Shown: positions 28,612 through 46,795 of the stretch, in pieces
How the letters are laid out: each line of letters begins with the position of its first letter
Position numbering within the stretch: the stretch's first letter is position 1
IMG/VR virus record: IMGVR_UViG_3300035661_000010
Reading direction: 5' to 3' (one strand)
Origin: a virus
Length of the DNA: 64,000 nt
Program-made: the position numbers and the translations under genes
The notes under the pieces: model-generated
Databases searched by the model: none
The model's input: only the letters and a program-made list of their open reading frames with translations
What the model was told of the DNA's origin: nothing

Positions 28612-29718
28612 GTGGAGGCGAAAGCTGTTATCGGATGGGATCCGTCTGCGTTCGCGGTCATCGCATCGCGAATTCAGATGGCCCTTCAGACAGGACATGT
28701 GTCCCTCGGCGACAGTACGAAGCTGGTCGAGGGACTGTGGCCTGGTGAGGGTGGAGATAGGCATAGCGTCGTCGTCTCGAATGGGACCACGGCGCTGGAG
28801 CTTGTCTGGCACTTGTTCAGGCCAAGGGTCGTGATTGCTCCAGAGATGACAGTGCCGATGGTGCACTGGTCCGCAAAGAACAGCCCAAGCCGCCCAACCC
28901 TGATCAAGGTTGATGTCGACGACACCCTCTGCGCCGACATCACCAAGATCGATGAAGCGATCGAACTCGCGAAGCTGAATGGATCAGACCTCTCGGATGT
29001 GGCCGTGTGCTACGTCATGACCGCAGGACTCGTAAGTCCGGGACTGGCTGCCGCAGCCGTAAGGTGGCGCTCGCTCGGCGTCAAGGTCGTGCTCGACATG
29101 AGTCACGCGCACGGCGCCACGTACAACGGATACGCTCCGTACACGTGGGCTGACGCAGCTACTTGGTCCTTCTACGCTACGAAGGTGCTGACCAGTGGCG
29201 AAGGCGGCATTGCATGGTTCAGTGACCCTCAGCACGCGGAGGATGCGAAGATCGTCGCGAACCAAGGAAAGAAGCGCGGTACCGGCAAGTTCATGGTGGA
29301 AGGCCGAGGGTATCGGCTCAGCGAGTTCGCGGCAGCCGTCATGGCCTACGAAGTCACCATGGCCCGCACGGTCTACCAGAAGCGACAGAGTGTCGCGAAG
29401 TCGTACGAAGGTTTCGGGATTCCTGGGTTGCACCAGTTCGTCCCTCAGCTTCAGACCTCGTTCTACAAGTACGTGGTACCCGTCAGTGCCACCAAGTTCG
29501 CTCCAGATTCAGCCGATGCTGTGGAAGAGGCTTTCGCTTCTCTTGGTGTTCGCTGTACTGGTCGCGTTCATGGGTTCTCCGAAAACGGAGGCCGCCCATG
29601 GTCAATGCCCAGAGCAAAGTTCTGGGCTCAGAATCACGTCTGTCTCCCGGTGGGTCGTCTCATGCATCCGATGATGCTGGAGACGATCGAAGAAGCCTGG
29701 AAACAGATTCGCAAGTAA
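28612..29718 (+). CDS. DegT/DnrJ/EryC1/StrS PLP-dependent sugar aminotransferase
   Basis: VSNGTTAL, LDMSHAHGA, SFYATKVLTSGEGG with catalytic Lys, GYRLSEFAAA, CLP. Confidence 0.88.
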   Translation: MEAKAVIGWDPSAFAVIASRIQMALQTGHVSLGDSTKLVEGLWPGEGGDRHSVVVSNGTTALELVWHLFRPRVVIAPEMTVPMVHWSAKNSPSRPTLIKVDVDDTLCADITKIDEAIELAKLNGSDLSDVAVCYVMTAGLVSPGLAAAAVRWRSLGVKVVLDMSHAHGATYNGYAPYTWADAATWSFYATKVLTSGEGGIAWFSDPQHAEDAKIVANQGKKRGTGKFMVEGRGYRLSEFAAAVMAYEVTMARTVYQKRQSVAKSYEGFGIPGLHQFVPQLQTSFYKYVVPVSATKFAPDSADAVEEAFASLGVRCTGRVHGFSENGGRPWSMPRAKFWAQNHVCLPVGRLMHPMMLETIEEAWKQIRK

Positions 29719-29752
29719 ACGCTCCGGCATTCAAACAAGAAAGAGACAGGTC

Positions 29753-30733
29753 ATGGCGACAACGTATGTGAGCATCGACAAGATCGAGACGAAGCCCCAG
29801 GTCCGGACGGTTTGGGAGCAGTCTGCTCTCGAAGAGCTGTCCGCCAGCGTGAAGGAATACGGCATCCTGGAGCCCCTGGTCGTTCGCTCGAAGAGCGGCA
29901 AGGACTCTGGGTACATCCTGGAGATCGGACGCCGGCGCCTTGAAGCTGCCAAGATGGCCGGACTGAAGAAGGTCCCCGTCACGGTCACCAAGGAGCCGGT
30001 CGCGAACACGCCGGTCATCCAGCTCATCGAGAACCTCCAGCGCGAGGACATGAACGACATGGACCTCGCGAATGCGTTCAAGGGAGTCATGGAGACCCAG
30101 AGCCTCACGTTAGACCAGCTCGCCGAGAAGATCTCGAAGACGAAGGGCTTTGTGAAGCAGCGTCTCACGCTGACGAAGGCTGCCCCTGAGGTTCAGGAAG
30201 CCGTCCGTCGTGGCGACATCGAGTTCAGCGGAGCTCGCGCGTTGTGCGGTTTGCCGAAGGAGGAGCAGGCCAATGCACTCCAGGAAGCTGTCGCTGAGGA
30301 GGCGGAGGCGCGCAAGGATCGCGACGAGCGGAAGGCCAAGATGCTCGACCTCCCGGGCGTCGTTCGTGCAGAGTCGGGGGAGACCTCCGACGAGGAAGAG
30401 AAGGGAGAGGCGAAGGGTGAGGCGAATGCCGATTCCGAGGACAAGCAGCGCAAGCAGCGTGTGTCCAAGAAGAAGACGGAGCCGAAGGCGAAGACGTCCA
30501 CGGTCAAGCGCATCACGCGCCGCCGCAAACGCGACAAGGCCGGCGCCCAGACCACCGCACGTCCGGTCGCCGAGCGCCTGGAAGAGAAGACGAAGGAGTG
30601 GGTGGCTGGCTTCATCGACGAGGACACCAAGGGCAAGGGCCTCGACGAGCAGCTCAGCGCCCAGAGCGCCAGGAACCTGCTGAAGCGGTTCACGGCGTAC
30701 TTGCTCGAACAGCGCGCCCTCATGGTTCGCTGA
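29753..30733 (+). CDS. parB: ParB/Spo0J-like protein with HTH
   Basis: QVR...LEELSASVKEYGILEPLVV, GRRRLEAA, LIENLQREDM, LTLDQLAEKISKTKGFV. Confidence 0.88.
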   Translation: MATTYVSIDKIETKPQVRTVWEQSALEELSASVKEYGILEPLVVRSKSGKDSGYILEIGRRRLEAAKMAGLKKVPVTVTKEPVANTPVIQLIENLQREDMNDMDLANAFKGVMETQSLTLDQLAEKISKTKGFVKQRLTLTKAAPEVQEAVRRGDIEFSGARALCGLPKEEQANALQEAVAEEAEARKDRDERKAKMLDLPGVVRAESGETSDEEEKGEAKGEANADSEDKQRKQRVSKKKTEPKAKTSTVKRITRRRKRDKAGAQTTARPVAERLEEKTKEWVAGFIDEDTKGKGLDEQLSAQSARNLLKRFTAYLLEQRALMVR

Positions 30734-30739
30734 GGTTAC

Positions 30740-30765
30740 GTAGGGGGCCCATCAAGGCTCCCTAC
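30740..30765. promoter_or_regulatory. Inverted repeat immediately after parB
   Basis: GTAGGGGGCC-CATCAA-GGCTCCCTAC; no U-tract. Confidence 0.45.
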
Positions 30766-30817
30766 CACCCCACCCTCAGGAGCCAAAACGAGGCCACGGG
30801 AGGCTTCGGTAGCCATC

Positions 30818-31573
30818 ATGCACGGAGCCACCATGGGCATCCTCGTCAGCGTCCATCAGCCCCAAGTCTTCCATTCGATTCATCTGCTCAGTCGCATCAT
30901 CAGATCCAACGTTCACGTGGTCATGGATCTGGCCCAGATCAACCGAAAGGTGGGGATGGCCACCTACCTGCTAGGCAGACGCGACGAAGATCCGGATCGT
31001 TCGCCCATTTCCATGAAGGTGCCGGTAAGCGGCGGAAACAGGGTCTCCTGTCTTGAGGCGAAAATCGGCGTTGATGACGGATGGGTCGACAAGCATCTCG
31101 GAATGTTCGATCACTTGTACTCACGAGCGACGCACTACCAAAGCACGAGACGACAGCTGGCTCTTTGTCTGACCGAATGGAGAGGGGCCAGTTTCGCATC
31201 GTTCGGGACCATGTGCCTTCGGTTTGCCTTTGGAGCCATGGGTCTCGAAAACCCGCCGACAGTCTTCAAGGAAAGCAGCCTACGAATGCCTGTCGTCGGC
31301 GAAGATGGTACTGACCGCATCGCAGGTCTTGTGCAGACGGTCTACGGAACCGGGTACTACTGCGGAAGGCCAGAAGACAGGCCGTATCTGGACGAGGATC
31401 GCCTCCGAGCTCGCGGAATCAAGACTCACGCTCAAGACTTCGTTCCACCGCCGGATGGAAACCTATCTTGGGTCCATGTGCTCGCGAAAGAAGGCCGCCA
31501 AGGACTACAGGCTGCCTTGATTGCAGGTCCACGCGACAAAGCAACGGACAGGGTGCTGCACTTTGCGCCGTAA
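30818..31573 (+). CDS. WbqC-like protein
   Basis: VHQPQVF, MDLAQ, DRI..LV...GTGYYCG, YLD...RGI. Confidence 0.7.
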   Translation: MHGATMGILVSVHQPQVFHSIHLLSRIIRSNVHVVMDLAQINRKVGMATYLLGRRDEDPDRSPISMKVPVSGGNRVSCLEAKIGVDDGWVDKHLGMFDHLYSRATHYQSTRRQLALCLTEWRGASFASFGTMCLRFAFGAMGLENPPTVFKESSLRMPVVGEDGTDRIAGLVQTVYGTGYYCGRPEDRPYLDEDRLRARGIKTHAQDFVPPPDGNLSWVHVLAKEGRQGLQAALIAGPRDKATDRVLHFAP

Positions 31574-31653: not shown

Positions 31654-32814
31654 ATGAACGAGAAGCAGACTGGTTTCTTCGAAGCGCTGGGCGAAAAGCC
31701 ACCTGAGCCAAAGAAGGCGAAAGAAGAAAAGCGCACTCATCCGACCATCAGGTACGTAGAGGTAGAAGCGCAGACGTCGGCCGGGAAGTACAAGGTCGAC
31801 CTATTCGAAGGAGTGTGCTCCTGCTCGGCTCCAGTCGGGGAGGGGTGCTTCCACCTAAGGAAGGCCCGCGACGTCCATCTGAACAAGTGTGCCAAGACGC
31901 GGCACGAAGCCGTCAGTGCGATGCACAAGGAGATTCGACGCGGAGATGTTCAAGCCTCCCTGTACTGGGCGGACATCCTGTCAAGGCACTCCGACTACTA
32001 CGTAAAGCGGTACGTTCGTCAGATCGTGGGCGAGGAGACGAGGAACTGGAACCTGTACTGGATGGCCCTTCGTCCAGGCGAGCACTCGTACCGAGACATG
32101 GTCGGAGCGATCGCCAGCTCGAGGAAGAAGTGGGAACACAAGAACGTCTGCCGTCCGTTCAAGGAGCAGCTGAAGGCGTTCTGGGACCTCAACGAGAGCA
32201 ACTACGACTTCAAGCCCGGCGAGGAGCTGATCGAAGAAACGCGCGCCGCTCTGAAGCGTGACGACATGCCATTGATCTTCAAGCTCTTCGCGGCCATCGA
32301 ATGCAAGGAAGAAGACGAGACGACCTTGGCTTTCGAACATGTCCTGTGTGAAGAGGTTGAGCATCGGTTCGAAGACATGAAGAATCTCAAGTTCTTCATG
32401 GAGAAGTACCCGGGGTGGACGGGGCGCGACAATTGGGAGAATCGTCTCACCATGATCGAGATGCTCACCGGCGCATGGGACAAGACCATGAACGAGTTCA
32501 TCCACGATCCAGAAGGGGCCTACGAGTACGATGACGGTGCGCTTCTGAAGAAGTTCCCAGACTACGTTTACGACAAGCATCTGATTCAGGGGCAACGTCG
32601 CCTGGAGAAGTACTTCGACAAAATTGGTCCGATGAAACCTATGCCAGACAAGCTCGACATGCGCTGGTCAGGTCAATTTATGGGCGTCTCTTGGAGGTAT
32701 GCTGCGTACGTCCAGTTCGGCGACAACTACGTCAACGCCAGGTGGGAGGACGTGAAGTGGTCGAAGGAGTTCTGGGAGTACACGCTGTCCATGCAGAAGG
32801 CTTGTGAGGGGTAA
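31654..32814 (+). CDS. SWIM Zn-finger + MgsA/RarA C-terminal-like protein
   Basis: CSC......GCFH; SAMHKEIRRGD..ASLYW...IVGEE; PDYVYDKH; no Walker A. Confidence 0.6.
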   Translation: MNEKQTGFFEALGEKPPEPKKAKEEKRTHPTIRYVEVEAQTSAGKYKVDLFEGVCSCSAPVGEGCFHLRKARDVHLNKCAKTRHEAVSAMHKEIRRGDVQASLYWADILSRHSDYYVKRYVRQIVGEETRNWNLYWMALRPGEHSYRDMVGAIASSRKKWEHKNVCRPFKEQLKAFWDLNESNYDFKPGEELIEETRAALKRDDMPLIFKLFAAIECKEEDETTLAFEHVLCEEVEHRFEDMKNLKFFMEKYPGWTGRDNWENRLTMIEMLTGAWDKTMNEFIHDPEGAYEYDDGALLKKFPDYVYDKHLIQGQRRLEKYFDKIGPMKPMPDKLDMRWSGQFMGVSWRYAAYVQFGDNYVNARWEDVKWSKEFWEYTLSMQKACEG

Positions 32815-32817: not shown

Positions 32818-33561
32818 ATGGAACGCGTTCACGGTCTTGTCATGGTGCAGCAGCCCCAGGTCTACCCGAAGTTGCACCGAATTCATCGGTGGCTTCGAGT
32901 AGAGCGATACGTCTGCATGGACGACGCGCAAGTTGATCGTCCTGGTGGTATGGCTCGCTTCAGCTTCGTGCACAACAACGAGCCGCATCGAATCTCGATT
33001 CCGATTACGGGCGGCAAGCGGGTCGCATGCAACCAGGCTAAGGTTTATCTGGACATCGGCCACATGCGAACGATCAAGGAGCACGTTCGAGTCACCCTCG
33101 GCAAGATGAAGTACGGTCAGGAGGTGAGCGAGTTCGTTGCCAAAACGCTAGACATGGCTCCACACTCGCTGTCGTTCGCCGAATGGACGGAAGCATGCAT
33201 GACGTATCTGACGATCTTGCTGTGCGAGCTGCCTGGATTCCAGGGGCCAGCCCGGTTCCTGGAGTCGAGGATTCCGTCCGTAAAGACGTCCGGTCCATCG
33301 AATCGGATCCTGAGCGTCGTGAAGCTTGTTGGGGGTACCGCGTACTACACAGGCAGTCGCGGCTCGCCCAGCCGTGACTACCTTGACGAGGTGACCTTCG
33401 CCGCTGAGGGGATCAAGATCCTGGAGCAGCAGTTTTACACGAACGACTTTCCAGTTGGTCTTGGCGACCGGACGTTTCTGGAGACCTGGGCAAGGTATGG
33501 TCTGACAGGAATGCTGGACATCCTGAATCGCGGAACGCTCGACAACAAGGAAGTCACCTGA
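32818..33561 (+). CDS. WbqC-like protein (second paralog)
   Basis: VQQPQVYP, MDDAQ, ISIP, NRILSVVKLVGGTAYYTG, DYLD..FAAEGI. Confidence 0.75.
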   Translation: MERVHGLVMVQQPQVYPKLHRIHRWLRVERYVCMDDAQVDRPGGMARFSFVHNNEPHRISIPITGGKRVACNQAKVYLDIGHMRTIKEHVRVTLGKMKYGQEVSEFVAKTLDMAPHSLSFAEWTEACMTYLTILLCELPGFQGPARFLESRIPSVKTSGPSNRILSVVKLVGGTAYYTGSRGSPSRDYLDEVTFAAEGIKILEQQFYTNDFPVGLGDRTFLETWARYGLTGMLDILNRGTLDNKEVT

Positions 33562-35141
33562 TGCAACGACGCGTTCTCCTTGTGCCGCAGCTCGGACTTT
33601 CTCGCGCTCGGAGCGATTCTTCCTATCAGTTCATGATGGATCTGATTCGCTCATCGAGAGAGATGGATCGGAAGTTCTTCTTCTACATGATCCTGCCAGA
33701 GTGGGCCCAGGACCCGTGGCCTGATGAGCCGAACCAGTTCACGATCACGGTGCCGATGAACAAGGACTTCTGGATGAACGAGATGATCGGCGTTCCGGCT
33801 GAGCCTCTCGCAGAAGCCTTTTGTCGTCGTGGCGGCAAGTACATCGTCGACATGCTCTACACGGAGATGGTTCGACCAAGCTGGTACATGGGGCAGGTGA
33901 TCAGTGACTATCGGTCGCGTCACAGTTTGCCAGTGTTCATCACTGATCCGATCACCATCGGCGGCTGGGTAAATCGAACATGGGAGCACCGGGTGGCGAA
34001 CGCATACTCGTACCTGCACGGGTACCCGCTTGCCACGTCGACGTTCGAGGAGAATGGCTACCGAGAGCTGGTCACTGACTTCTTCAGGCCCGCGTACATC
34101 GACAAGTTCAACCAGCGCATCCACCGGGTGCCGGTCGCGATCGACATCGCCTCGTACCAGAAGGTTAGAGACGAGGAACAAGGCAACAAGCACGAGAAGG
34201 TCTCGCTCTTCTGCGGCATGCGATTCAACGAAGACAAAGGCATCAAGTTCATCATGGATGTCTTCCGTACGCTCTACGCCAGCGGCCGTGACATCTACGT
34301 GTGCTCGACGACGGGGACCGATCAGATCAAGGGCACTCAGCAGATCCCGGACAAGGACATGTCGATGCTCAAGACGATGAAGTTCGGATGCCCTCGCGAC
34401 GAGTACGTTCAAGAAGCTGCCAGGTGCCACGTCTTCTTGTCCGCGTCGAAAGTCGAGTCGTTCGCGATGCATATCGTTGAGCAACTCACGCTCGGCCTCA
34501 TCGGAGTCCTGCCAAATGCTCAGTGGGTATGGGACTGGATCCCGAAGGAGTATCCGTTCGTCTACGAGCCTGGCGATCGCGTCGAGGCGTACACGATGAT
34601 CTCATGGGTCATGGATAACTACGAGCGGGCCTACGAGATGGCCCGACCGTTCATGGACTATGTCGCGAAGGCTTACGACTCGAAAGAATCCTCTAAAGCG
34701 ATCTTTGATGCGTTCAACCAGAGGATCGACGAGCGATTCGTTGACTACACGAAGAAGCCCCTGCGCTTCTCGAAAGGTGGCAAGTTCCGGTACCCGTTCC
34801 GCCTTGAGGTCTGTGACGCAGCAGATTCACTGGGCGAGAGCTTCTCGATGCCGCAGCTGCTCCAGGTGCTCAAGGCGCGGATGAAGGGCACAGACGTCGG
34901 CGTCTTCACCAAGCTCGGAGGACCGAGACTGGGCGTGCCTACGCTCTACGACATTCGGATGATGTTGGAGTCGTACGGTTGGACGGATGCGTGCGACGGA
35001 CCCAAGGTCAGGTTCGTGCGCGGGGACAACGTCATCGTTCCGAGCCACGCCTACGCAGATCAGATCGCTGCTGCCAAAGCAGGAAAGATTGCCCACGCCG
35101 CTGAAGCTGCTGCCGACGAAGAGGAGGATCTCGATGTATAA
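33561..35141 (+). CDS. GT-B fold glycosyltransferase (GT4-like)
   Basis: VPVAID, RFNEDKG, HVFLSASKVESFAMHIVE (E-x7-E), extra C-terminal domain. Confidence 0.8.
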   Translation: MQRRVLLVPQLGLSRARSDSSYQFMMDLIRSSREMDRKFFFYMILPEWAQDPWPDEPNQFTITVPMNKDFWMNEMIGVPAEPLAEAFCRRGGKYIVDMLYTEMVRPSWYMGQVISDYRSRHSLPVFITDPITIGGWVNRTWEHRVANAYSYLHGYPLATSTFEENGYRELVTDFFRPAYIDKFNQRIHRVPVAIDIASYQKVRDEEQGNKHEKVSLFCGMRFNEDKGIKFIMDVFRTLYASGRDIYVCSTTGTDQIKGTQQIPDKDMSMLKTMKFGCPRDEYVQEAARCHVFLSASKVESFAMHIVEQLTLGLIGVLPNAQWVWDWIPKEYPFVYEPGDRVEAYTMISWVMDNYERAYEMARPFMDYVAKAYDSKESSKAIFDAFNQRIDERFVDYTKKPLRFSKGGKFRYPFRLEVCDAADSLGESFSMPQLLQVLKARMKGTDVGVFTKLGGPRLGVPTLYDIRMMLESYGWTDACDGPKVRFVRGDNVIVPSHAYADQIAAAKAGKIAHAAEAAADEEEDLDV

Positions 35142-35403
35142 GCTCGGGGAGAGAAAGCTGACCAGTACGCAGTACGAGACGTTGAAAGCGATTGATCAGT
35201 ACATCAAGACGATGGGGCATGCGCCCACGCATCATGAGCTCGCCGAGGTCATGAGGCTTCCGAATGCGCGGGCCGTAGCGAATCGTATCGACGCGCTCGT
35301 CAACAAGGGTTACCTGGATCAGACGAAGTTTCAGCCACGAGGGATTCGACCCTCGAAGAAGGCAACGTCCGAGTATCCAGAGCTGGGAAGAATTGCATCA
35401 TGA
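35134..35403 (+). CDS. LexA-type DNA-binding domain protein (no peptidase domain)
   Basis: LTSTQYETLKAIDQYIKTMGHAPTHHELAEVM...AVANRIDALVNKGYL....PRGI. Confidence 0.8.
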   Translation: MYKLGERKLTSTQYETLKAIDQYIKTMGHAPTHHELAEVMRLPNARAVANRIDALVNKGYLDQTKFQPRGIRPSKKATSEYPELGRIAS

Positions 35404-36503
35404 GACCGAGTCGCAGTGACATCGAGCAGATCTTCGAAGGACGTCGCACCGTTCTGTACGCGCACGACCTCCGAGAGAGCCTGCTCATGGACAACGTGTC
35501 CCCATTGAGCTGCGACTTCACGCTTTCGGATGCTTGCCAGCACAAGTGCCACTTCTGCGTCGACGATCGCAACGAGGTTTCTGGCCCGATCATGTCCGAG
35601 GAGGACGCCTTTCGGATCTTGACGCAGCTTCGCAAGCTTGGCGTGATGAGCGTGAACTTCGAAGGCGGAGGCGAGCCAACCATCGCTCCCGCTTTCGTGG
35701 CGGCCATGCGCCATGCTCACGGCAGCGGGATGCACGTCGGGCTCATCACGAACGGCGGCATGCTTCACAAAGAGGAGATTGCAAACACGCTCCTCGACTG
35801 CGCACGCTACGTGCGCATCAGTCTCGATGCGGTGTCCCCGGAGACTCACGAGACGAGTCACGGCGTGAAGGGGCAGTTCAACAAGATCGTCGAGTCCATC
35901 AAGGAGCTCGTTCGACGTCGAGACGCGAAGACCTCGTCGCGGTCACCGTACGAAAAGCTTCCGGTGATCGGACTTGGCTACCTCATCGACGAGAACACGT
36001 TCCAGGGCATGCACCACGCCTTGGCACTTGGGGAGCATACGGGTGTCGACTACGTGTCGTATCGACCCATGCACAGCGACAAGAAGTATGGTGGGTACTA
36101 CCTTCGAGACGACATGAACTTCGCGCACTCGCAGGCGTTGAAGAGGGTCTCCGAAGTGGAGGGTGGTTCGCGAGTCTACGCAGCGATCGACTGGCCCACC
36201 TCGAAGTATGTGCCCACCAAGAAGTGTTTTGCTCACCGAGGCAAGATCACGGTAGGAGCGACGGGCGACGTCTACACGTGCTGTAACAAGCGGTACAACC
36301 AGGACTACAGCTTCGGTCAGCTCAGGCCTGACGTGCCGCTCGAGCGCCTATGGAGCGGGCCGAAGCGCAAGGACGTCATCAAGCGCCTGGAGAACGCCCT
36401 TCAGGACATGAGCCAACACTGCTCCTCTTGCAACAGCGACGATCTGAATCGAACGTATGTGGAGATGAAGCGTCCGAACCTGCATCACCGCTTCATGGGT
36501 TGA
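35400..36503 (+). CDS. Radical SAM enzyme with SPASM/Twitch domain
   Basis: CQHKCHFC, GGGEPT, ITNG, ISLDA, C...GDVYTCC, CSSC. Confidence 0.92.
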   Translation: MRPSRSDIEQIFEGRRTVLYAHDLRESLLMDNVSPLSCDFTLSDACQHKCHFCVDDRNEVSGPIMSEEDAFRILTQLRKLGVMSVNFEGGGEPTIAPAFVAAMRHAHGSGMHVGLITNGGMLHKEEIANTLLDCARYVRISLDAVSPETHETSHGVKGQFNKIVESIKELVRRRDAKTSSRSPYEKLPVIGLGYLIDENTFQGMHHALALGEHTGVDYVSYRPMHSDKKYGGYYLRDDMNFAHSQALKRVSEVEGGSRVYAAIDWPTSKYVPTKKCFAHRGKITVGATGDVYTCCNKRYNQDYSFGQLRPDVPLERLWSGPKRKDVIKRLENALQDMSQHCSSCNSDDLNRTYVEMKRPNLHHRFMG

Positions 36504-37376: not shown

Positions 37377-37388
37377 GGACGAAGAGCC

Positions 37389-39072: not shown

Positions 39073-40696
39073 AAAGGTGTACACGCTCCTCTGCCCATTC
39101 GGAGGGATTGGCGCAGGAGCCTTGGGATTCCTTCGTGCTCGGTTGAAGATGCTCGGAGTCGAGGCTCGGTGGAAGGTCATCGGCAACATCGACAACGACA
39201 AGCTTGCCTGTGAAGACTTCGAGTACCTGACGAAGTCGAAGGCCGTCTGCGCCGACATCCAGGCGATGACGGCCAAGGAGCTGATCGCTCACTTCGGTCC
39301 GGAGCCACCGGACGCTGTCTTCAGCAGCCCGCCGTGCAAGGGCTTCAGTGGTCTGCTCTCGGAGAAGCGGTCGAAGACGGACAAGTACCAGAAGATGAAC
39401 CGGCTCATCCTCGACTGGATGGAGCTGATGTTCAAGGCATGGCCAGAAGGCCCTCGGCTCGTACTCATCGAGAACGTGCCCAGGATCCAGTCACGCGGCG
39501 CTCCGCTTCTCCGCCAGATCAAGGAGATACTGAACGCGCACGGTTACGTCTGCCACGGCAGCACTCATGATTGTGGTGAGCTCGGTGGTCTCGGCCAGCA
39601 TCGTCAACGCTTCCTGCTCGTTGCTCGAAAGTATAAAAAGGTCCCTGCGATTCTGTTTCAACCGATCAAGAAGCGGGTGAAGGCGTGCGGCGAAGTCCTG
39701 GAGAAGCTGCCCATGCCGAATGATCCGGCTGGCGGCCCCATGCACGTTCTTCCAAAGGTCTCGTGGTTGAACTGGGTCCGGTTGTCCCTCATCCCAGCTG
39801 GTGGAGACTGGAGGGATCTCCCGGGCGTGCTCGAGGAAGGACAGGAGCGCCGATCCAAGTTCAAGCGTAAGGCCGTTGAGAGCTGGTACGCACCAACGGG
39901 GACGATTGGCGGACCGGGCTCGAATGGTGTCGAGAATGTCGCGGATCCGCGCGTCACGTCCATCTCGAACAGCCAGAACACTCACCAGAACAAGTACGCC
40001 ATCATCGAGTGGGACAAGGCAAGCAAGACTGTCATCGGAGCGGCGAGGCCAGGCTCAGGAGCCCTGAACGTGGCTGACCCTCGCATCCCCAAGGACATCA
40101 AGCTCAACATCGTGATGCCACCTGCGGTCTGCTACGACCATGGCTATGGGGTCCTGGACTTCTGGAATCAGCCATCCTCCACCATCGCCGCGGGGTCAGC
40201 TGTAGGTCAGGGCGCGTATTCGGTAGCTGATCCTCGCCTGATCCCGAAGGCAGAGCCGTACAAAGGAACGTACGGAGTGCTCGACTGGAAGGAGGTGGCG
40301 AAGACCGTCACCGGCAACGCTCGTCTCGATACGGGCACGTTCGCCGTGGCGGATCCGCGAGACAACCGTCCGCACTGGATTATCAACAAGCTCACGGACA
40401 AGCCACCGTTCGTCCCAGTCATCGTAGCCGAGGACGGAACGTGGCACCGACCGCTAACCACCCTGGAGCTTGCCGCCCTTCAGTCGATCCCGACAGAAGT
40501 GGACGGGAAGCCCTTGAAGCTCGCCGGGAACAGCATCTCTGGCTGGCGCGAGCGAATCGGGAACGCCGTTCCGGTGGACACGGCTGAAGCCATTGGCGTA
40601 AGGATGCTCACGGTCCTTCTGGAGAGCGATACGAACGCATTCATGCTGTCTTCTGGTGGAGCGGTATGGGTGGAGCCAGCACGGCTCGACTCGTAA
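39056..40696 (+). CDS. dcm: DNA cytosine-C5 methyltransferase
   Basis: Motif I FGGIG, IV SPPCKGFS, VI ENVP, VIII QHRQR, IX RPLT..ELAALQ, X IGNAVP. Confidence 0.93.
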   Translation: MSTTDEKVYTLLCPFGGIGAGALGFLRARLKMLGVEARWKVIGNIDNDKLACEDFEYLTKSKAVCADIQAMTAKELIAHFGPEPPDAVFSSPPCKGFSGLLSEKRSKTDKYQKMNRLILDWMELMFKAWPEGPRLVLIENVPRIQSRGAPLLRQIKEILNAHGYVCHGSTHDCGELGGLGQHRQRFLLVARKYKKVPAILFQPIKKRVKACGEVLEKLPMPNDPAGGPMHVLPKVSWLNWVRLSLIPAGGDWRDLPGVLEEGQERRSKFKRKAVESWYAPTGTIGGPGSNGVENVADPRVTSISNSQNTHQNKYAIIEWDKASKTVIGAARPGSGALNVADPRIPKDIKLNIVMPPAVCYDHGYGVLDFWNQPSSTIAAGSAVGQGAYSVADPRLIPKAEPYKGTYGVLDWKEVAKTVTGNARLDTGTFAVADPRDNRPHWIINKLTDKPPFVPVIVAEDGTWHRPLTTLELAALQSIPTEVDGKPLKLAGNSISGWRERIGNAVPVDTAEAIGVRMLTVLLESDTNAFMLSSGGAVWVEPARLDS

Positions 40697-40765: not shown

Positions 40766-41563
40766 ATGTACAGCTCGAATGGCGTTGCACTATCAAAGTC
40801 GTGCACCGCACCCATGGTCGACAGCAGTGACCTGCTCGGGGATCAAGAGGCGCTTCGCAAGCGCTACGCAGAGGACGGCTACCTGAAGTTCTCGGGTCTG
40901 CTCCCAAAGAAGCGGGTACTCGGTATCCGGAAGCTGTACTTCGACCTGTTCAACTTCAAGTCGGATGGGTGTCCTTCACATGGAACGCCAGGCCATCCAG
41001 CTTTTTCGTTTGTTCGGTCGGAGGTCTTCGATTCGTTCGCCAAGCCAGAGGAGATGTTTCAGATCTCTGAGGCGCTCTTGCAGATAGATTCAGTGGTTCC
41101 GCTCAAGCGGAGACCGCTCCGTCACTTCAAGAAAGGACACGCTGCCTCGCGGGCGCATGCGGATCTGAGCTACGTCGATCAGGGCACCAAGGACGTCGTC
41201 ACGTTCTGGGTGCCGATCGGGGACTGTCTCGCAGATACGGGGTCTCTCACGTACCTCGAAGGATCGCACAAGATCGGCATCGACAAGCTGCGTCAGACGA
41301 TGAGCGATCGCACCGACAGTCCGAATGACAAGCGGCGCCTCAGCCACGATCTGCAAGCACTTGCGGAACGAACGGGAAGGAAATGGCTGGTCAGCGACTT
41401 CGAGGCTGGAGACGTGGTCTGCCACTCTCCGTACATCATCCATGCTTCGCTCGACTGTCGCACCGATGAACCGCGGCTATCCACGGACCTTCGCTTCGTG
41501 CGGCTCGGAGACGAGATCGACCCGCGCTGGTTGAAAGACTGGCGAGCAGACGACGGTTACTAG
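40766..41563 (+). CDS. PhyH-family Fe(II)/2-oxoglutarate dioxygenase
   Basis: EDGYL, AHAD..Y, TFWVPIGD...GSLTYLEGSH, GDVVCH...HAS...RLSTDLRF. Confidence 0.88.
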   Translation: MYSSNGVALSKSCTAPMVDSSDLLGDQEALRKRYAEDGYLKFSGLLPKKRVLGIRKLYFDLFNFKSDGCPSHGTPGHPAFSFVRSEVFDSFAKPEEMFQISEALLQIDSVVPLKRRPLRHFKKGHAASRAHADLSYVDQGTKDVVTFWVPIGDCLADTGSLTYLEGSHKIGIDKLRQTMSDRTDSPNDKRRLSHDLQALAERTGRKWLVSDFEAGDVVCHSPYIIHASLDCRTDEPRLSTDLRFVRLGDEIDPRWLKDWRADDGY

Positions 41564-41638: not shown

Positions 41639-42424
41639 ATGAGAGTTCTGGTAGTCGCTCCGCATGCGGATGACGAAGTGCTCGGAGCTGGTGGGTACAT
41701 GGCGAAGCTCGCCAACGCTGGTCACGAGGTCTTCGTCTTGATCATGTGCGATCGTTCAGAGGGGCATTCGTACGATCCGCAGTTGATCGGATTCCTTCGC
41801 GATTGCGCCCTGAAAGCAAACGCGATTCTTGGAACGAAAGCGGTGTTCTTCGCTCACCTTCGCGAGGAACGACTTGACACGTCACTTTCGGACGTCATCG
41901 TTCCGATTGAGAAGCACATTGCCATGATCCGTCCATCACTTGTGATGCTGCCGCATCGAGGCGACGTGAACCAAGATCATCGAGCGGTCTTCGAGGCTGG
42001 GCTTGTGGCCACGCGCACGCTCGGTAACTGGGAAGACAAGTACACCGAGAACGAGCTCCGCGGCGCCGCTTCTCCGTACAAGCAGAAGGAGAAGACGGCT
42101 CGACGTTACAACGTGCAGAAGGTCCTCTGTTACGAGGTCCCCTCAACGACAGAGCAAGCTCCGCCAGGGTGGGGGTTCAATCCGAATGTCTTCGTCGACA
42201 TCACCGACACTCTGGAACAAAAGGTAAGAGCTCTCGCTTGCTACACCAGCGAGACGGATGCCTTTCCGTTTCCTCGATCTCTCGAAGGTATGCGAGTGGT
42301 CGCTAGGTTCAGAGGTATGGCTGCCTCCTTCGAAGCCGCCGAGGCGTTCGAGTTGAAAAGGGAGATCGTGTTCACTACCAACGGAAGCAGTACGACGAAG
42401 AGTAAGGTGAAGAGGAAGCGATGA
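41639..42424 (+). CDS. PIG-L/LmbE family N-deacetylase
   Basis: VVAPHADDEVLGAGG, DVNQDH, YEVPSTT, PNVFVDI, AEAF. Confidence 0.92.
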   Translation: MRVLVVAPHADDEVLGAGGYMAKLANAGHEVFVLIMCDRSEGHSYDPQLIGFLRDCALKANAILGTKAVFFAHLREERLDTSLSDVIVPIEKHIAMIRPSLVMLPHRGDVNQDHRAVFEAGLVATRTLGNWEDKYTENELRGAASPYKQKEKTARRYNVQKVLCYEVPSTTEQAPPGWGFNPNVFVDITDTLEQKVRALACYTSETDAFPFPRSLEGMRVVARFRGMAASFEAAEAFELKREIVFTTNGSSTTKSKVKRKR

Positions 42425-42951
42425 GTGAAAAGATCGGAGAGTTCAGGATCTCGAACCTCGTTCCTGAGGACTACGCATCGATCATCTCTGTCGAGATATC
42501 GGCCTTCAGTGGAGACAAGGTGATGGGCGTCGAAAACATCGCGGACCTGTACGTGTACGACGGACTCAGGTTCTCGCTCAAAGCCACTGTGGACGACAGT
42601 GACATGGTTGGCTACATGCTCGTGCACGTGATGGCGGAGAACGAGAGTCGTCGCATGCTCTACCTGGCTGACTTCGCCGTCAGACCAGAGTTTCAACGCA
42701 TGAACGTCGGATGGCAGATGATGCGGTCGTTCATGTGCGCGATGAAAGAAGAGAGGGTTGTTACGCTCTTCGACATGGAGCTTGTCGAAGGCTCACACAA
42801 GATGATGGAGAAGCGTCGCGACGACATATCGAAGCTCGGGTGGGAGAAGCTGAGCGAGCACAAGCTCTCCGACTATCACGGCGATCAAGACCATGCCTGG
42901 TACCACCTGTACGCGCTCTGCCCGAAAGACACCGATGCTGGTTCAAGATGA
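42421..42951 (+). CDS. GNAT acetyltransferase
   Basis: VGYML...LYLADFAVRPEFQRMNVGWQMM. Confidence 0.8.
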   Translation: MSEKIGEFRISNLVPEDYASIISVEISAFSGDKVMGVENIADLYVYDGLRFSLKATVDDSDMVGYMLVHVMAENESRRMLYLADFAVRPEFQRMNVGWQMMRSFMCAMKEERVVTLFDMELVEGSHKMMEKRRDDISKLGWEKLSEHKLSDYHGDQDHAWYHLYALCPKDTDAGSR

Positions 42952-43810
42952 ACACTTGGTGGACTCGCTCTTCCTCGATCTGAAAGAGAAGAACGCGCAG
43001 CACGTAGCGGACACCCTCTGGTATCGAAAGGCCATCACTGGTCGCGCCAAGCCGTTTGTGTTCATTGGTCGACAGAGTCATGTGTTCGCGTGGCAGCTCG
43101 AAAGCGGAGCCTCTGAAGTGTGGGGCGGCGAGACGTTCGTGGAGCAAGATGCGCTTCCGATGAACGAGGTCGACGCTTGTCAGTTCGTCGAGGAAATGCC
43201 GAAACCTTTTTGGTCGTTCACGTCTGGCGCCCATGAGATCTTGAAGCCAAAGCTCCAGGACGAGTACTCGTCGATGCGGATCGATCTTTGTCCATATCGA
43301 TCGATGGAAGAGTACGAGGCCACGGTCTGGTCGAGCAAGCGTCGCCGAAACCTGACTCAAGAACTTCGCCAGTACGACAGGTTCAGTAGATCGCTGTCGA
43401 CACTATTTGATGCGCGGGATCTGTCATGGTTGCTGGACCTGAATGCGACTGTGTCCATCAAGATGGGCGAGGTTCCGTACTACGAGAGTGGCAACAGGCT
43501 CGGAGGCTTGTGCAAGCTTCTCGGAACTGCGTCTGCGCTGGGATTCTATCGGTGCCTCAAGATCTACGATGGCGAGCGCCTCGCGGCGGCGGAAGTGTTT
43601 GTCGAGCATGCGCCGACCAGATCGATCCTGTCATTCATGGGGCACGCGCTTCCTGAATACTCAGGACTCGGAAAAGTCCTGTACAAAGAAGTGATCGCCA
43701 GAGCCATCAGCGTTGGAATCGAAACGGTCGACGTTGGAAATTACAAGAGCGACATCAAACTTCTGTTCAAGTATCGACCGCTGCCAACGTACGACGTGGA
43801 GATTGTGTGA
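42935..43810 (+). CDS. FemAB/CelD-BcsL-like GNAT-fold transferase
   Basis: IDL..YRSMEEY...SSKRRRNL...LAAA...YSGLGKVL...AISVG...VDVG. Confidence 0.6.
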   Translation: MLVQDEHLVDSLFLDLKEKNAQHVADTLWYRKAITGRAKPFVFIGRQSHVFAWQLESGASEVWGGETFVEQDALPMNEVDACQFVEEMPKPFWSFTSGAHEILKPKLQDEYSSMRIDLCPYRSMEEYEATVWSSKRRRNLTQELRQYDRFSRSLSTLFDARDLSWLLDLNATVSIKMGEVPYYESGNRLGGLCKLLGTASALGFYRCLKIYDGERLAAAEVFVEHAPTRSILSFMGHALPEYSGLGKVLYKEVIARAISVGIETVDVGNYKSDIKLLFKYRPLPTYDVEIV

Positions 43811-45189
43811 TGAAAAAGGTCTTTGTTACAGGAACATGGGGCCGACCGAACGGACTCGAAGCCAACATCTATCGTTCAACCAACGGAGACGCACTCGTTC
43901 GTCGATACCCGGACTTCGATGAGTACGACGTTTGGAAGAATGCACATACCACCGCGGATCACGATCCGTTTGGTGACGGCGAGAAGAGAGACTGGGCCAA
44001 GTACTACGGTCACATTGACTCGATGATCAAGAGCGGCAAATGGGACGCGATCATCTGCTGTTTCCTCGACGATGCCATCACTGGAGGGATGTCCAAGTAC
44101 GCGGAGAAGATTCCAACGCTGTGCGTGAACAGAGAAGCGGCCAGGCTCGAGGACGACCGATGGTTTGCTCGATCGGTTACGTCGAAGTACGGCGTGGCCG
44201 CTTCTGCAATGGAGCTCGTCCGGACAAAGCAGGAGGCGCTTGCCTTCCTGAGTAACGACTGCCCGTGGGAGGGATGCGTTGTGAAACTGCTCGACTCCAC
44301 GACACATGAGGTCGTTGCGGAGATCTACGATACGAAGAAGGAAGCCATCTCGGCCATCGAGTCGCGGCCAGACGCTTGGTTTCCGAGCGTCATCGAAGAG
44401 AAGCTGTCTGGTCACGAAGTCGCGTTCTCGGTGCTCGTCAGCCACGAAACAGACCAGATCATCCCGATGGTCACCGATTTCGAGTACACGCGGTTGGCCA
44501 CCGGAGACCTGGGTCGAGAGACGAGCGAGATGGGCTCGCACGACATCGCTGGAGTCTCTGACAGGGTGCTCCAGGAAATCTTTTGGCCAATGATGCCTTG
44601 GTTCAAGGAGGTCGGCTACACGGGCTGGCTCGATGCGAGCTGCATGTACAATCCGAAGACAGACACGCTAACGGTTTTCGAGTTCATGACCAGACTTGGA
44701 AGTAGCCAGTTCGAGCTGGCGATGACACTGCTCGGCACGGACTTCTCGGAAATCGTCCAGAGGATGCACCGAAAGGCCCTTCGTCCAGACGATGTCCGGT
44801 GGCGGTACAAGCACGGTGTAGGCGTTGTGGTCTGCGACAGCTACGCGATGACCGGAGAAAGTGACCGCCGACACATTGTTTCCGGTCCGGTGAAGGAACT
44901 GATCTACGGTCGCGTCTTCGCCGACTACGGCTTCCAGACGCTGTCGAGAATGAACTGTGTCTTCGACAAGCAGGAACGCATGGTGACGAGAGGCGATCGC
45001 GTCTACAACGCCATTGGAGCTGGTGACACGTTTCCCATCGCGAAGAAGCATGCCTACAGCGTTGCTCGGTTCTGCAAGTTCACGGGCGCGTACTACAGGA
45101 CAGACATCGGCTATCGCTGGGAAGACGATGAGGCGAAGGGCGCGCTGGGTGAGAGCGGGGTCCTTCCGAGAGGCTGGTACCGAGAATGA
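43810..45189 (+). CDS. Diverged PurD (GAR synthetase)-like ATP-grasp ligase
   Basis: AARLEDDRWFA, VIEEKLSGHEV, FEYTRLATGDLGRETSEMG, GYTGWL, FEFMTRLG, VTRGDRV, YYRTDIG. Confidence 0.8.
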   Translation: MKKVFVTGTWGRPNGLEANIYRSTNGDALVRRYPDFDEYDVWKNAHTTADHDPFGDGEKRDWAKYYGHIDSMIKSGKWDAIICCFLDDAITGGMSKYAEKIPTLCVNREAARLEDDRWFARSVTSKYGVAASAMELVRTKQEALAFLSNDCPWEGCVVKLLDSTTHEVVAEIYDTKKEAISAIESRPDAWFPSVIEEKLSGHEVAFSVLVSHETDQIIPMVTDFEYTRLATGDLGRETSEMGSHDIAGVSDRVLQEIFWPMMPWFKEVGYTGWLDASCMYNPKTDTLTVFEFMTRLGSSQFELAMTLLGTDFSEIVQRMHRKALRPDDVRWRYKHGVGVVVCDSYAMTGESDRRHIVSGPVKELIYGRVFADYGFQTLSRMNCVFDKQERMVTRGDRVYNAIGAGDTFPIAKKHAYSVARFCKFTGAYYRTDIGYRWEDDEAKGALGESGVLPRGWYRE

Positions 45190-45764
45190 AGGTCAAGATT
45201 TCGTTATGGAATCCGCTCGAAGACGTGATCGAAACGTTCATGTTTTTGCTTGGATTGTCGGGCTCCATCGTCTTCATGCGTCACAGGTGGCTGGCGCTTG
45301 CTGCCGCGCTGATTGGTGCCCTTGGAGCCGCGAGACTCCTGACCCAGGCCATCGGGCGTTCGCGTCTGCGCAACAGCATGCGTTACGTCACAGTCCACGG
45401 GCTCATGATCGTTGGGAACCGGGTACCCTCTCCAGAGTACGTGGAGCAGGTGATTTCGGAGACGTTCGAGTGGCTCACCGAAAACGCACGGTTCGAGGAG
45501 AAAGACTTCGAGAGACTGCTTCATGGGTGTGTTCTCGAAGTCATCGACGCACCGTTGCCGGAGTGGTGCGACCTCACATGCCCGTGGGCATTGCTTCCAT
45601 GGGACTCAGGCAAGTGGATGCGTTGCGGAATGAACGATGGGCGCAAGCTACCGGCTCTGCCGCATGTTTTGTTACATCGCGCGATGTACGTGAAGTATGG
45701 GATGATCGAGTCAGTTGATGTGCATGAAGCGGCCGATGACGTCGGCTTCGATAGGACGGGCTGA
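45186..45764 (+). CDS. Hypothetical membrane protein
   Basis: Two N-terminal hydrophobic segments; HVLLH. Confidence 0.55.
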   Translation: MKVKISLWNPLEDVIETFMFLLGLSGSIVFMRHRWLALAAALIGALGAARLLTQAIGRSRLRNSMRYVTVHGLMIVGNRVPSPEYVEQVISETFEWLTENARFEEKDFERLLHGCVLEVIDAPLPEWCDLTCPWALLPWDSGKWMRCGMNDGRKLPALPHVLLHRAMYVKYGMIESVDVHEAADDVGFDRTG

Positions 45765-45766
45765 AC

Positions 45767-46795
45767 ATGGCGAATGAAAAGAAAAAGACGCAGCCCGTAT
45801 CTACGGACCCGCCGGCGCCTGCTACCGAAACGTTGCCGTCAGCTCCCATGCCGCCCACTCCAGCGTTCGACATGGCGATGCCCCCAATTCCGTCACTGGC
45901 CGGGGCAAGTCTTCCGGCCTTTGCGATGACTCGCATAGAGACGGTCAAGACTGAGGTTCACAACGCTGAGCCTGTGACCGAGAGCAAGTCGCTCAAGGTG
46001 TGGGACGTTCCGGTCGACCTCATCGATCCAAACGTAGACAACCCGAACGAGATGGACGAGGAGACCTTCAACGTTCTCGCAGAAGAGATCGACGAGCAGC
46101 ACGAAGGTTCACCTGGCTTCATCGAACCGATTCACCTGGTCCGCTTGAACAACGGTCGATTCCAGCTCGTTGGCGGAGAGCACCGATGGCGAGCAGTGAA
46201 GGCTCTCGGTAGGAAGACGATTCCAGCCTTGATCTTCGAGGGAGGCAATTGGGACAAGGAGGAGTTCCGGGAGTTCATGCTCTTCCGCTTGAACCACCTC
46301 CGCGGCAGTTTGAACACCGACAAGTTCCTGAAGCTGTACCAGAAGCATGCCGAGAAATATGGCAACGAGCAGCTTCAAAGGCTCTACGCCTTCACCGACA
46401 AGGACTACTGGGCAAGCCTCACGGGAGGCACGAAGCAGGCGCTCAAGGACATGGGCATGTCGCAGGAGATGCTCAACGACTTCGACGAGAAGAGCAAAGA
46501 GGTAAAGACGGTCGACGACCTCGCCTCCATCCTGAATGGCTTGTTCTCGAAATACGGGAACGACCTTCGGTACAACTTCATGGTCTTCGTTTTCGGCGGC
46601 AAAGAGCATCTCATGATCCGAATGGACAAGGAGATGACTGCCCAGATGGAGAAAGTGAAGAGGTTCTGTCGAGACAATCAGATCGACGTGAACCTGCTCT
46701 TCAAGCCAGTGGTGAGTCGCATCAAGGACTTCGCAGAAGATCCAGAGACGCTGGCCAGGCTGAAGTCGACCGGTGAAGTCGACGGCTTCAAGTGA
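45767..46795 (+). CDS. ParB/Srx-domain protein
   Basis: VPVDLIDPN.DNPNEM, GFIEPI, LVGGEHRWRA...LG; Pro-rich N-terminus. Confidence 0.82.
   Translation: MANEKKKTQPVSTDPPAPATETLPSAPMPPTPAFDMAMPPIPSLAGASLPAFAMTRIETVKTEVHNAEPVTESKSLKVWDVPVDLIDPNVDNPNEMDEETFNVLAEEIDEQHEGSPGFIEPIHLVRLNNGRFQLVGGEHRWRAVKALGRKTIPALIFEGGNWDKEEFREFMLFRLNHLRGSLNTDKFLKLYQKHAEKYGNEQLQRLYAFTDKDYWASLTGGTKQALKDMGMSQEMLNDFDEKSKEVKTVDDLASILNGLFSKYGNDLRYNFMVFVFGGKEHLMIRMDKEMTAQMEKVKRFCRDNQIDVNLLFKPVVSRIKDFAEDPETLARLKSTGEVDGFK

Follow-up and report, generated by a model that had tools for sequence, protein, structure and literature searches.

The question raised by the phage gene cluster described here is which molecule its glycosyltransferase modifies, and what is then built on the sugar that it transfers. 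The cluster lies in a 64,000-nucleotide stretch of DNA (hereafter, the window) that corresponds to bases 70333-134332 of IMG/VR virus record IMGVR_UViG_3300035661_000010, a 159-kb phage record (159018 bp) that is 93% complete. It spans ~19 kb (27683-46795), and every long open reading frame (ORF) between 27.7 and 46.8 kb is on the + strand, with short gaps or overlaps. Our analysis finds a glycosyltransferase (GT) coupled to ParB-type genes, in a small core that recurs by itself in other phages, together with a conserved series of sugar-tailoring enzymes. The reading that we prefer, and to which we give about even confidence, is a phage DNA-glycosylation system in which an amino sugar is tailored on the polymer.

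The ParB-glycosyltransferase core

Judged from sequence comparison, the core of the cluster is four genes, pulled apart in the window by inserted tailoring genes. Domain calls here and below are Pfam profile matches, with E-values given per gene; HTH stands for helix-turn-helix and aa for amino acids.

27683..28609, +, core gene 1, unk308: 308 aa, Lys/Glu-rich, with a helical, HTH-like C-terminal half (phrog_17202, 1.8e-26)
29753..30733, +, core gene 2, ParB1: canonical ParB with an N-terminal nucleotide-binding domain and an HTH (ParB_N 1.4e-17, HTH_ParB 3.3e-16)
33561..35141, +, core gene 3, GT: GT4-type retaining GT-B glycosyltransferase with an extra C-terminal domain and an acidic tail (Glycos_transf_1 6e-4, and structure model)
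45767..46795, +, core gene 4, ParB2: ParB N-terminal domain only, plus a distinctive C-terminal domain (ParB_N 7.7e-11; phrog_26387 1.3e-49)

The IMG/VR loci L022-L024 carry unk308, ParB1, GT and ParB2 in this order and nothing else of the cluster, loci L025-L028 carry GT followed by ParB2, and contig P0130 carries a ParB with HTH, the GT and a ParB_N protein. The GT-ParB2 pairing is also present in GenBank, usually just 5' of the terminase gene: in the Arthrobacter phages DanielleIgnace, KellEzio, Kitkat and BeatusComedenti, in Agrobacterium phage JP1, in four Rhodobacter phages including RcTiptonus, in Vibrio phages and in Stenotrophomonas phage DLP3. In all loci examined whose flanks are long enough, a ParB2-type gene follows on the 3' side of the GT, and ParB1 lies directly 5' of it in L022-L024 and P0130. 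As the core stands alone in other phages, the GT travels with DNA-associated ParB proteins and not with sugar genes.

The Glycos_transf_1 match of the GT is weak and under the gathering score. An AlphaFold2 model (pLDDT 92.8, from a 58-sequence alignment) confirmed the GT-B fold, and a Foldseek search against the PDB returned the retaining GT4 enzymes BshA, MshA, PglA, PimA and HepE, with WaaG as a further neighbor; for BshA, the TM score normalized by target was 0.75-0.79 at an E-value of about 1e-12. BshA is UDP-GlcNAc-dependent, and MshA is likewise a UDP-GlcNAc enzyme. The best viral matches were Arthrobacter phage GTs that adjoin a ParB gene. In a full HMMER scan of 1.84 billion representatives, the family comprised ~392 clusters at 50% identity, mostly of 470-500 residues and aligning end to end. 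Residues ~413-487 of the window's GT form an additional alpha-beta-alpha-alpha-beta-beta unit, in which Pfam found nothing.

ParB1 has the GxRRxxA and ENLQRxD(M/L)N boxes and the HTH of a canonical CTP-type ParB. ParB2 has no HTH; its motifs NPNEM, GEHRWxA and LNxLF..G..L...FMVF.YGGK.H are kept across 14 loci, as is the distinctive C-terminal domain. We rejected ParB2 as an ortholog of a ParB associated with 5mYOX (TET/JBP) dioxygenases, since the shared part is the generic ParB_N core only, and unk308 as a divergent dioxygenase, since it lacks an HxD motif and is helical and HTH-like. A prediction of the GT-ParB2 complex, run without controls, scored 0.00, a value that speaks neither for nor against a contact. 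Directly 5' of the GT-ParB pair in Rhodobacter and Agrobacterium phages (L012:7549-7938 and L013:983-1399) lies a small 'DprA-like' (SLOG-type) protein, of which no homolog was found in the window's genome.

Conserved linkage and the tailoring enzymes

A megablast of the 18-kb stretch against GenBank phages gave no match. Relatives were found by protein search and form a rare lineage in Logan assemblies; we call it rare because IMG/VR and metagenome scans with three queries (PurD-like, GT and PIG-L) gave almost no additional close relatives. A 71-kb contig, represented by L004/L009, has 14 homologs in the same order at 24-68% identity: unk308, DegT, ParB1, WbqC a, SWIM/MgsA_C, GT, WbqC b, radical SAM, PhyH, PIG-L, Acetyltransf_6, PurD-like, the 192-aa protein and ParB2. 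Subsets of the cluster are repeated in fragments L002, L007 and L008 and in distant phages. Given this shared order and these subsets, the linkage is not due to chance. An earlier note on this DNA had proposed one functional cluster, and its homologs indeed proved to be linked rather than scattered; the domains that it named were all confirmed by Pfam, and the whole run is on the + strand. That note placed the start at 28612. The start should be moved to 27683, because the upstream 308-aa gene, with a 48% identical homolog directly 5' of DegT in L004, belongs to the conserved core. The conserved members outside the core are as follows.

28612..29718, +, DegT/DnrJ/EryC1-family pyridoxal phosphate-dependent aminotransferase (sugar keto to amine; Pfam 7e-34)
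30818..31573, +, WbqC-like protein a, candidate N-acyl or aminoacyl transfer enzyme (PF08889 7e-11)
31654..32814, +, SWIM zinc finger plus MgsA/RarA C-terminal-like protein, 386 aa (CxC..CxH motif; Atlas cluster)
32818..33561, +, WbqC-like protein b (PF08889 1.9e-10)
35400..36503, +, radical SAM enzyme with SPASM domain (Pfam 5.7e-17 and 1.2e-8)
40766..41563, +, PhyH-family Fe(II)/2-oxoglutarate dioxygenase (PF05721 3e-14)
41639..42424, +, PIG-L/LmbE-family de-N-acetylase (GlcNAc-glycoside to GlcN-glycoside; PF02585 7e-20)
42893..43810, +, Acetyltransf_6, FemAB/CelD-like GNAT-fold acyl or aminoacyl transferase (PF13480 8e-6)
43807..45189, +, PurD-like ATP-grasp amide ligase (GARS_A 2e-12, GARS_C 1e-8)
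45186..45764, +, 192-aa protein whose gene is coupled to that of the ligase; hydrophobic, transmembrane-like segments at the N-terminus (hydropathy)

The catalytic motifs are intact and conserved, namely the CxxxCxxC and SPASM cysteines, the HxD...H of PhyH, the SFYxTK lysine of DegT and the PHADDE of PIG-L. PIG-L is the most conserved gene of the set, at 68% identity to both L004 and L007, and the commonest companion among the variable tailoring sets described below; its homologs include DLP3 gp96, DanielleIgnace gp92, genes in L020 and L021, and Arthrobacter phage Prairie gp66. The nearest NCBIfam model is BshB1, at 50.8 bits versus a cut-off of 182.5. To our knowledge, all characterized PIG-L/LmbE enzymes act after transfer, de-N-acetylating GlcNAc glycosides. 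By analogy, the prevalence and conservation of the gene point to an N-acetylhexosamine that would be deacetylated after its transfer.

The DegT protein is 47% identical to its L004 homolog, has further homologs in DLP3 gp98 (28%) and L021, and falls far under all NCBIfam equivalog cut-offs. The radical SAM protein, with homologs in L004 (48%) and L007 (44%), has the CQHKCHFC motif and the conserved C-terminal CC... and C..C cysteine motifs of radical SAM/SPASM enzymes; its weak PDB matches are SkfB, viperin, DesII and BlsE, and it is a candidate sugar C-H oxidant (BtrN/DesII-like) or another kind of radical tailoring enzyme. PhyH has a 43% identical homolog in L004, and its best PDB matches are the small-molecule hydroxylases PtlH, SnoN and PhyH. 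For the SWIM protein, which has homologs in L004 (35%) and L008 (55%), the nearest Atlas cluster is viral (MgsA_C 43%, SWIM 21%, score 0.91), and a protein in L021 carries the SWIM and MgsA_C domains in reversed order. WbqC protein a is conserved in L004, and protein b has a 35% identical homolog in L004-L006/L009; WbqC-like genes also adjoin PIG-L and GT in L021 and L020. The predicted WbqC model is poor (pLDDT 57), no PDB relative was found by sequence or profile and no database homolog by word search, and literature searches on WbqC returned nothing useful. Glycyl transfer, the activity that the earlier note cited as proposed for the family, is putative here.

Homologs of Acetyltransf_6 lie directly 5' of the PurD-like gene in L002 (33%) and L004 (29%). 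The PurD-like ligase was rejected as a glycinamide ribonucleotide synthetase, as it scores 113 bits against the TIGR00877 cut-off of 288 and has no GARS_N domain. Bona fide PurDs are at most 29% identical to it, and its own neighbors are sugar enzymes; among 5.8 billion proteins it has only three close relatives, all phage-like, and the gene is also present in L021. Two tandem PurD-like paralogs (50% and 35% identical to the window's) directly follow PIG-L and Acetyltransf_6 at L002:1186-4398, which suggests two successive amino-acid additions in that phage. A 516-aa PurD-like ligase (34% identity) is encoded at L003:8059-14580 on a 227-kb ENA contig, probably from a jumbo phage. Its neighbors there are a JmjC/cupin protein, an MT-A70 fragment and two ORFs of 193 and 753 aa, GT and PIG-L are missing from the vicinity, and the ligase may represent a different use of its family. 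The 192-aa protein has a 24% identical homolog at the equivalent position in L009/L010; no family match was found for it in profile searches.

The genes that have no counterpart in L004/L009 are:

34987..35403, +, LexA-type HTH protein (PF01726 6e-14, residues 56-119)
36622-37095, +, DUF1643 (Pfam)
37092-37376, +, 94-aa ORF
37389-37841, +, HNH (HNH_3; Pfam)
37730-38632, +, DUF5131 (Pfam)
38629-39072, +, DUF3268 zinc ribbon (Pfam)
39056-40696, +, C5 DNA methyltransferase (DNA_methylase, Pfam; SSPPC motif IV)
42421..42951, +, small GNAT acetyltransferase (PF00583 8.6e-6)

The LexA-HTH gene, whose real start is probably downstream of the listed ORF start, has no homolog in L004/L007, and the small GNAT has no BLAST homolog in L004/L002. 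In L004, the radical SAM gene abuts PhyH and the block 36622..40696 is missing between them; of this block, DUF1643 alone recurs, in L007. The block is thus a lineage-specific insert outside the conserved core. As the C5-methyltransferase (C5-MTase) is inside this non-conserved insert, together with a homing-type HNH, it is no obligatory first step. DUF1643 and DUF5131 were rejected as pathway members, being general mobile-element or phage genes that are not conserved here. The nearest solved structure to the C5-MTase is DNMT1; its variable region has four spaced repeats ending in ADPR, and its motif IV, SSPPC, is as in CmoX carboxymethyltransferases.

We infer a donor sugar, an order of steps and DNA as the target, reading the tailoring steps from the chemistry of these families. 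In this scheme, unk308, ParB1, the GT (with its winged-helix-like C-terminal domain) and ParB2 would bring the transferase onto replicated phage DNA, the ParB role being analogous to that of the ParB activator needed by some phage thymine dioxygenases on double-stranded DNA. The GT would add an N-acetylhexosamine from the host UDP-sugar pool, most likely from UDP-GlcNAc, and PIG-L would strip the N-acetyl group to expose a cationic amine. Radical SAM-SPASM and/or PhyH might then oxidize a sugar carbinol to a ketone, a step that a short-chain dehydrogenase/reductase (SDR) would take over in DLP3, L007 and L021, and transamination of the ketone by DegT would give a second amine. Acylation or aminoacylation of the amines would fall to the PurD-like ligase, to the FemAB/CelD-like transferase and perhaps to the two WbqC proteins, and in this phage the non-conserved small GNAT, the capping enzyme of the earlier note, may add an optional acetyl cap. 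The end result would be a large adduct, zwitterionic or cationic, that shields modified positions from nucleases. A pathway to an acylated amino sugar had been proposed in the earlier note, and the enzyme logic (a GT4/BshA-like GT, PIG-L, an oxidant with DegT, several amide-forming enzymes) fits tailoring after glycosyl transfer; the entry through C5-MTase and PhyH that came with the proposal is not supported.

The composition of the set differs between phages. In L007, which belongs to the window's lineage, the place between radical SAM and PIG-L is taken by an SDR instead of PhyH, and this SDR is 38% identical to DLP3 gp97. L021 has the order DegT (fragment), MgsA_C/SWIM, metallopeptidase, SDR, PurD-like, methyltransferase, PIG-L, WbqC, GT, ParB; L020 has WbqC-like, PIG-L, GT; and DanielleIgnace has a second GT and PIG-L. 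The tailoring sets are variable and swappable, a diversification typical of an arms race. A further case is DLP3, with DLP5 a Delepquintavirus, in which gp96-gp104 run in the order PIG-L, SDR, DegT (WecE), class I methyltransferase, two further genes, GT, one gene and ParB, followed by one gene and TerL. PIG-L, DegT/WecE, GT and ParB2 are homologous to those of the window (27-30% identity) and in the same orientation, with ParB after GT. DLP3 differs in having an SDR and a class I methyltransferase, in adjoining the terminase, and in lacking radical SAM, PhyH, WbqC, the FemAB-like gene, the PurD-like gene and ParB1. It is a smaller, unrecognized version of the module in a cultured phage. In the published annotation, gp99 is an erythromycin-resistance methylase (Erm) and gp102 a GT modifying lipopolysaccharide (LPS) (PMC7326821); both are inside the cluster (MT110073.1 64670-71229) and might rather have a role in modifying sugar or DNA. 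The earlier note knew of no described pathway with this combination of enzymes. Our literature search, too, found no paper on a pathway with GT, PIG-L, DegT and amide ligase acting on DNA; the smaller version in DLP3 qualifies that statement.

The acceptor molecule

DNA is the most likely target in view of the GT-ParB coupling, the SWIM/MgsA_C partner, the genomic location, the lack of NDP-sugar, SDR and membrane machinery, the literature, and the resistance of DLP3 DNA to restriction. MgsA_C/SWIM is a replication-associated domain, and the protein that carries it belongs to the conserved set. The cluster is flanked upstream by DnaB, primase, an intein-bearing helicase, RecA and Cpn10 and downstream by a papain-like peptidase, a glucosaminidase, ThyX and a dNMP kinase, which places it in a region of replication and nucleotide metabolism. 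A profile search found no NTP_transferase or SDR in the 159-kb genome, and the cluster has no multi-pass membrane protein, flippase or polymerase, its enzymes being without membrane segments by hydropathy. This bears out the earlier note, which had seen no NDP-sugar synthase, flippase or polymerase, and on the same grounds, together with the lack of a membrane GT, we rejected a captured O-antigen or capsule locus. In Arthrobacter phage Prairie, the homolog of the window's PIG-L stands in the order ParB_N, Tet_JBP, TET-associated GT, PIG-L, so that a phage PIG-L does occur in an accepted DNA-hypermodification layout.

Published systems offer close parallels. A ParB-like protein activates phage thymine dioxygenases on double-stranded DNA, and the commonest neighbors of these enzymes are GT (31%), ParB (27%) and terminase (19%) (PMC13229309). 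5mYOX (TET/JBP) clusters contain GT and ParB, with or without a C5-MTase (PMC8256090; bioRxiv 10.1101/2023.12.21.572611; PMC13229309), and phage GTs attach hexose, N-acetylhexosamine (HexNAc) and heptose to 5-hydroxymethylcytosine (5hmC) (bioRxiv 10.1101/2023.12.21.572611). The window resembles them in coupling a phage GT to a ParB-like protein, often near the terminase, and in its variable sugar-modifying neighbors; HexNAc is among the proven 5mYOX adducts, and ParB2, with ParB_N only and no HTH, is like the published activator. However, the window and the tested GT-B/ParB2 loci lack TET/JBP, the window's GT is of the GT4 type, with a GT-B fold and an additional C-terminal domain, and not a TAGT/GT-A enzyme, and two ParB types, an HTH-like protein and a far larger tailoring set are present. 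Among pre-replicative glycosylated pyrimidines are the glucosyl-5hmC of T4 and the arabinosyl-5-hydroxycytosine of RB69 and Acinetobacter DLP3, and the DNA arabinosyltransferases also resemble BshA (PMC13326640). BshA-resembling GT-B enzymes thus act on phage DNA, with a glycan that diversifies in an arms race, but these systems need a ThyA-homolog dNMP hydroxymethylase or hydroxylase, which the window's genome lacks. In the CmoA/CmoX/CmoY pathway to 5-carboxymethylcytosine-glycine, an ATP-dependent amide ligase puts an amino acid on a base adduct (PMC12783734). ParBc genes are frequent neighbors there and the window's C5-MTase has the SPPC motif, but the ligase is of the AMP-forming asparagine-synthetase type and not ATP-grasp, and the C5-MTase is not conserved in the window's relatives. 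The C5-MTase as a CmoX carboxymethyltransferase was itself not supported, with no CmoA (TIGR00740) in the genome and no CmoX among the PDB matches. Finally, DLP3 DNA resisted 15/15 restriction enzymes tested; the modification was not identified, and no deazaguanine genes were reported (PMC7326821). Overall, the system would work like the ParB-associated post-replicative DNA glycosylation clusters, with a sugar chemistry that mirrors that of bacillithiol/mycothiol and of aminoglycoside tailoring. The earlier note had likewise favored DNA, a view that gains from the invariable GT-ParB pairing and the published ParB/GT hypermodification loci; its attachment point, 5hmC, is not supported.

Several observations weigh against DNA as the target. 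No known base-activating enzyme is present in the genome, so that the window lacks what defines the 5mYOX and the ThyA-based families. TET/JBP (PF12851) was found neither in the 159-kb genome, nor in DLP3, nor in the records behind L011-L013, L023 and L024, and the negative is meaningful, since the search did find the Prairie enzyme (E 4.9e-8). A ThyA homolog (PF00303) was absent from the genome (the control was positive in 10/14 genomes) and from four carrier phages; the minimal GT-ParB loci and DLP3 also lack the known base enzymes that create a hydroxyl acceptor. A ThyX-like gene (53880-54782), 39% identical to DLP3 gp107, was rejected as a hidden hydroxymethylase, as the family occurs in >1000 phages of many types. 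PhyH belongs to PF05721, with nearest solved relatives that hydroxylate small molecules, and not to TET/JBP. CTGCAG is absent from the 159018-bp genome (0 observed versus ~32 expected under a Markov model), and CTCGAG, CAGCTG, ACCGGT and AGGCCT all have observed/expected ratios <0.5. Such avoidance would be needless if every C or T carried a bulky group, and therefore the modification does not shield every site. The conserved 192-aa member looks membrane-anchored. Many phages have ParB genes, for which partition is a conceivable role; DLP3 and DLP5 are temperate, and DLP5 is reportedly a phagemid. The winged-helix-like topology of the GT's C-terminal unit is drawn from the order of predicted secondary structure only, and a modified nucleoside in any phage with the module is itself putative.

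In a more novel version, the four-gene core would glycosylate DNA by itself, on bases to which no hydroxymethyl or hydroxy group has been added beforehand. Loaded at a site specific to the phage, a ParB clamp would single out the phage's DNA and bring in or switch on the GT, which would act on a canonical base or some other acceptor. In this lineage the DNA-bound GlcNAc would be rebuilt in situ to an aminoacylated diamino sugar, through reactions not known outside the mycothiol and aminoglycoside pathways. We regard this specific version as unlikely.

A rival that we rate as equally unlikely is the same enzymology with a protein acceptor, be it virion proteins, the ParB/HTH proteins themselves or a host protein, altering immunogenicity, stability or host takeover. 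Mycobacteriophage capsid and tail proteins are glycosylated, GT4 enzymes accept many substrates, and SPASM radical SAM enzymes are mostly peptide maturases, the best PDB/NCBIfam matches here being SkfB and the sactipeptide and mycofactocin maturases. A protein target would also agree with the failure to find a base-activating enzyme in the genome and with the persistence of restriction-site avoidance, and gp97, the SDR of DLP3, was among the proteins detected in its virions (PMC7326821). However, it leaves unexplained why ParB-type genes flank the GT in every lineage examined and why a SWIM/MgsA_C partner is kept; the cluster is in the replication region and not the structural one, and the restriction resistance of DLP3 DNA would need another cause.

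Somewhat less probable again is a soluble small molecule, either a bacillithiol/mycothiol-like conjugate or an aminoglycoside-like or peptidyl-nucleoside-like compound built on a host metabolite, with the ParB genes as unrelated neighbors or regulators. GT4, PIG-L, amide ligase and GNAT match the reaction order of MshA-MshB-MshC-MshD and BshA-BshB-BshC (retaining GlcNAc transfer, de-N-acetylation, ATP-dependent amino-acid ligation and acetylation), and the nearest characterized relatives of the GT and PIG-L are BshA, among the top structural matches, and BshB1, the top NCBIfam match. All scores are nevertheless far under the equivalog cut-offs; the window's ligase is an ATP-grasp PurD relative, with no BshC/MshC or other Cys ligase, and DegT, radical SAM, PhyH, the two WbqC, the FemAB-like protein and the ParB context have no counterpart in thiol synthesis. 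Aminoglycoside tailoring employs DegT-type BtrS/NeoB, the radical SAM dehydrogenase BtrN, PIG-L-type BtrD/NeoL, PhyH-type KanJ and ATP-grasp BtrJ. At the level of families, therefore, the window's DegT, SPASM, PIG-L, PhyH-type and GT genes recall butirosin and kanamycin tailoring, in which an attached, non-nucleotide-activated sugar is oxidized and transaminated, GlcNAc is unmasked and an amino-acyl chain is added, and the radical SAM protein is weakly similar to BlsE and DesII. Against this, there is no close sequence similarity, no 2-deoxy-scyllo-inosose synthase or other scaffold enzyme, no inositol-phosphate synthase, and no exporter or resistance gene, and the setting is a phage with ParB genes. 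A minimal core of a GT and three DNA-binding-type proteins, with no other enzyme, would make little sense for a small molecule.

The attachment route of the earlier note, a sub-case of DNA glycosylation, fares worse and is improbable: the C5-MTase would make 5mC, PhyH would oxidize it to 5hmC and the GT would glycosylate the product. The MTase and PhyH genes are adjacent in the window (39056-41563), the Fe/2-oxoglutarate triad of PhyH is intact, and methyltransferase, dioxygenase and GT form a proven layout (PMC8256090; bioRxiv 10.1101/2023.12.21.572611). But the MTase is in the non-conserved insert with HNH and is absent from L004/L009, which keep PhyH; PhyH is closest to small-molecule hydroxylases and not to TET/JBP; L007 has an SDR at the PhyH position; and the minimal and DLP3 modules have neither gene.

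Remodeling, on the cytoplasmic side, of a glycolipid or glycopolymer of the host envelope, so as to block superinfection (a GlcN-lipid as with PIG-A/PIG-L or PimA, or lipid II as with FemX), is very improbable: PimA and WaaG are structural neighbors of the GT, the PIG-L and FemAB families act on lipid-linked sugars, the conserved 192-aa member has transmembrane-like segments and the DLP3 authors proposed LPS modification for gp102 (PMC7326821), but a flippase, a polymerase, a membrane GT and genes of the GtrA/B type are all lacking, the enzymes are all predicted to be soluble, the ParB coupling is left unexplained, and the location is typical of early DNA-metabolism genes.

If DNA is the target, as we prefer, the adduct would be the first on a nucleic acid to arise through assembly of an amino-sugar peptide on the polymer, and hypermodification would extend to de-N-acetylation, radical/oxidative transamination and amino-acid ligation on a DNA-bound sugar. 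After the thymine dioxygenases, reported in 2026, GTs would be a second class of enzymes that work with partners of the ParB type. The lack of a known base-activating enzyme turns the matter into a sharp, testable question, namely which atom the GT glycosylates, and with cultured carriers at hand (Stenotrophomonas DLP3/DLP5, Arthrobacter DanielleIgnace, Agrobacterium JP1, Rhodobacter RcTiptonus) it can be answered by mass spectrometry. Such adducts would influence the restriction, CRISPR and sequencing behavior of phages that are candidates for therapy, and the enzymes could become DNA-labeling tools.

Genomic surroundings

Some features of the flanking genes deserve mention in their own right. 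Upstream of the cluster, the DEAD/ResIII helicase (17047-19437) is split by an intein that contains a homing endonuclease of the LAGLIDADG type (Hom_end_hint, Hom_end), and a comparable intein-bearing helicase lies near the GT-ParB core on the P0130 contig. The RecA (20113-21621) has 502 aa with a long N-terminal extension, and a 255-aa protein (26045-26812) contains two Cpn10 (GroES) stretches. On the 3' side are a 266-aa ORF (46836-47636) with a signal or transmembrane segment, a papain-family (C1) cysteine peptidase (48160-49101) and a glucosaminidase-type lysin (52010-52711).

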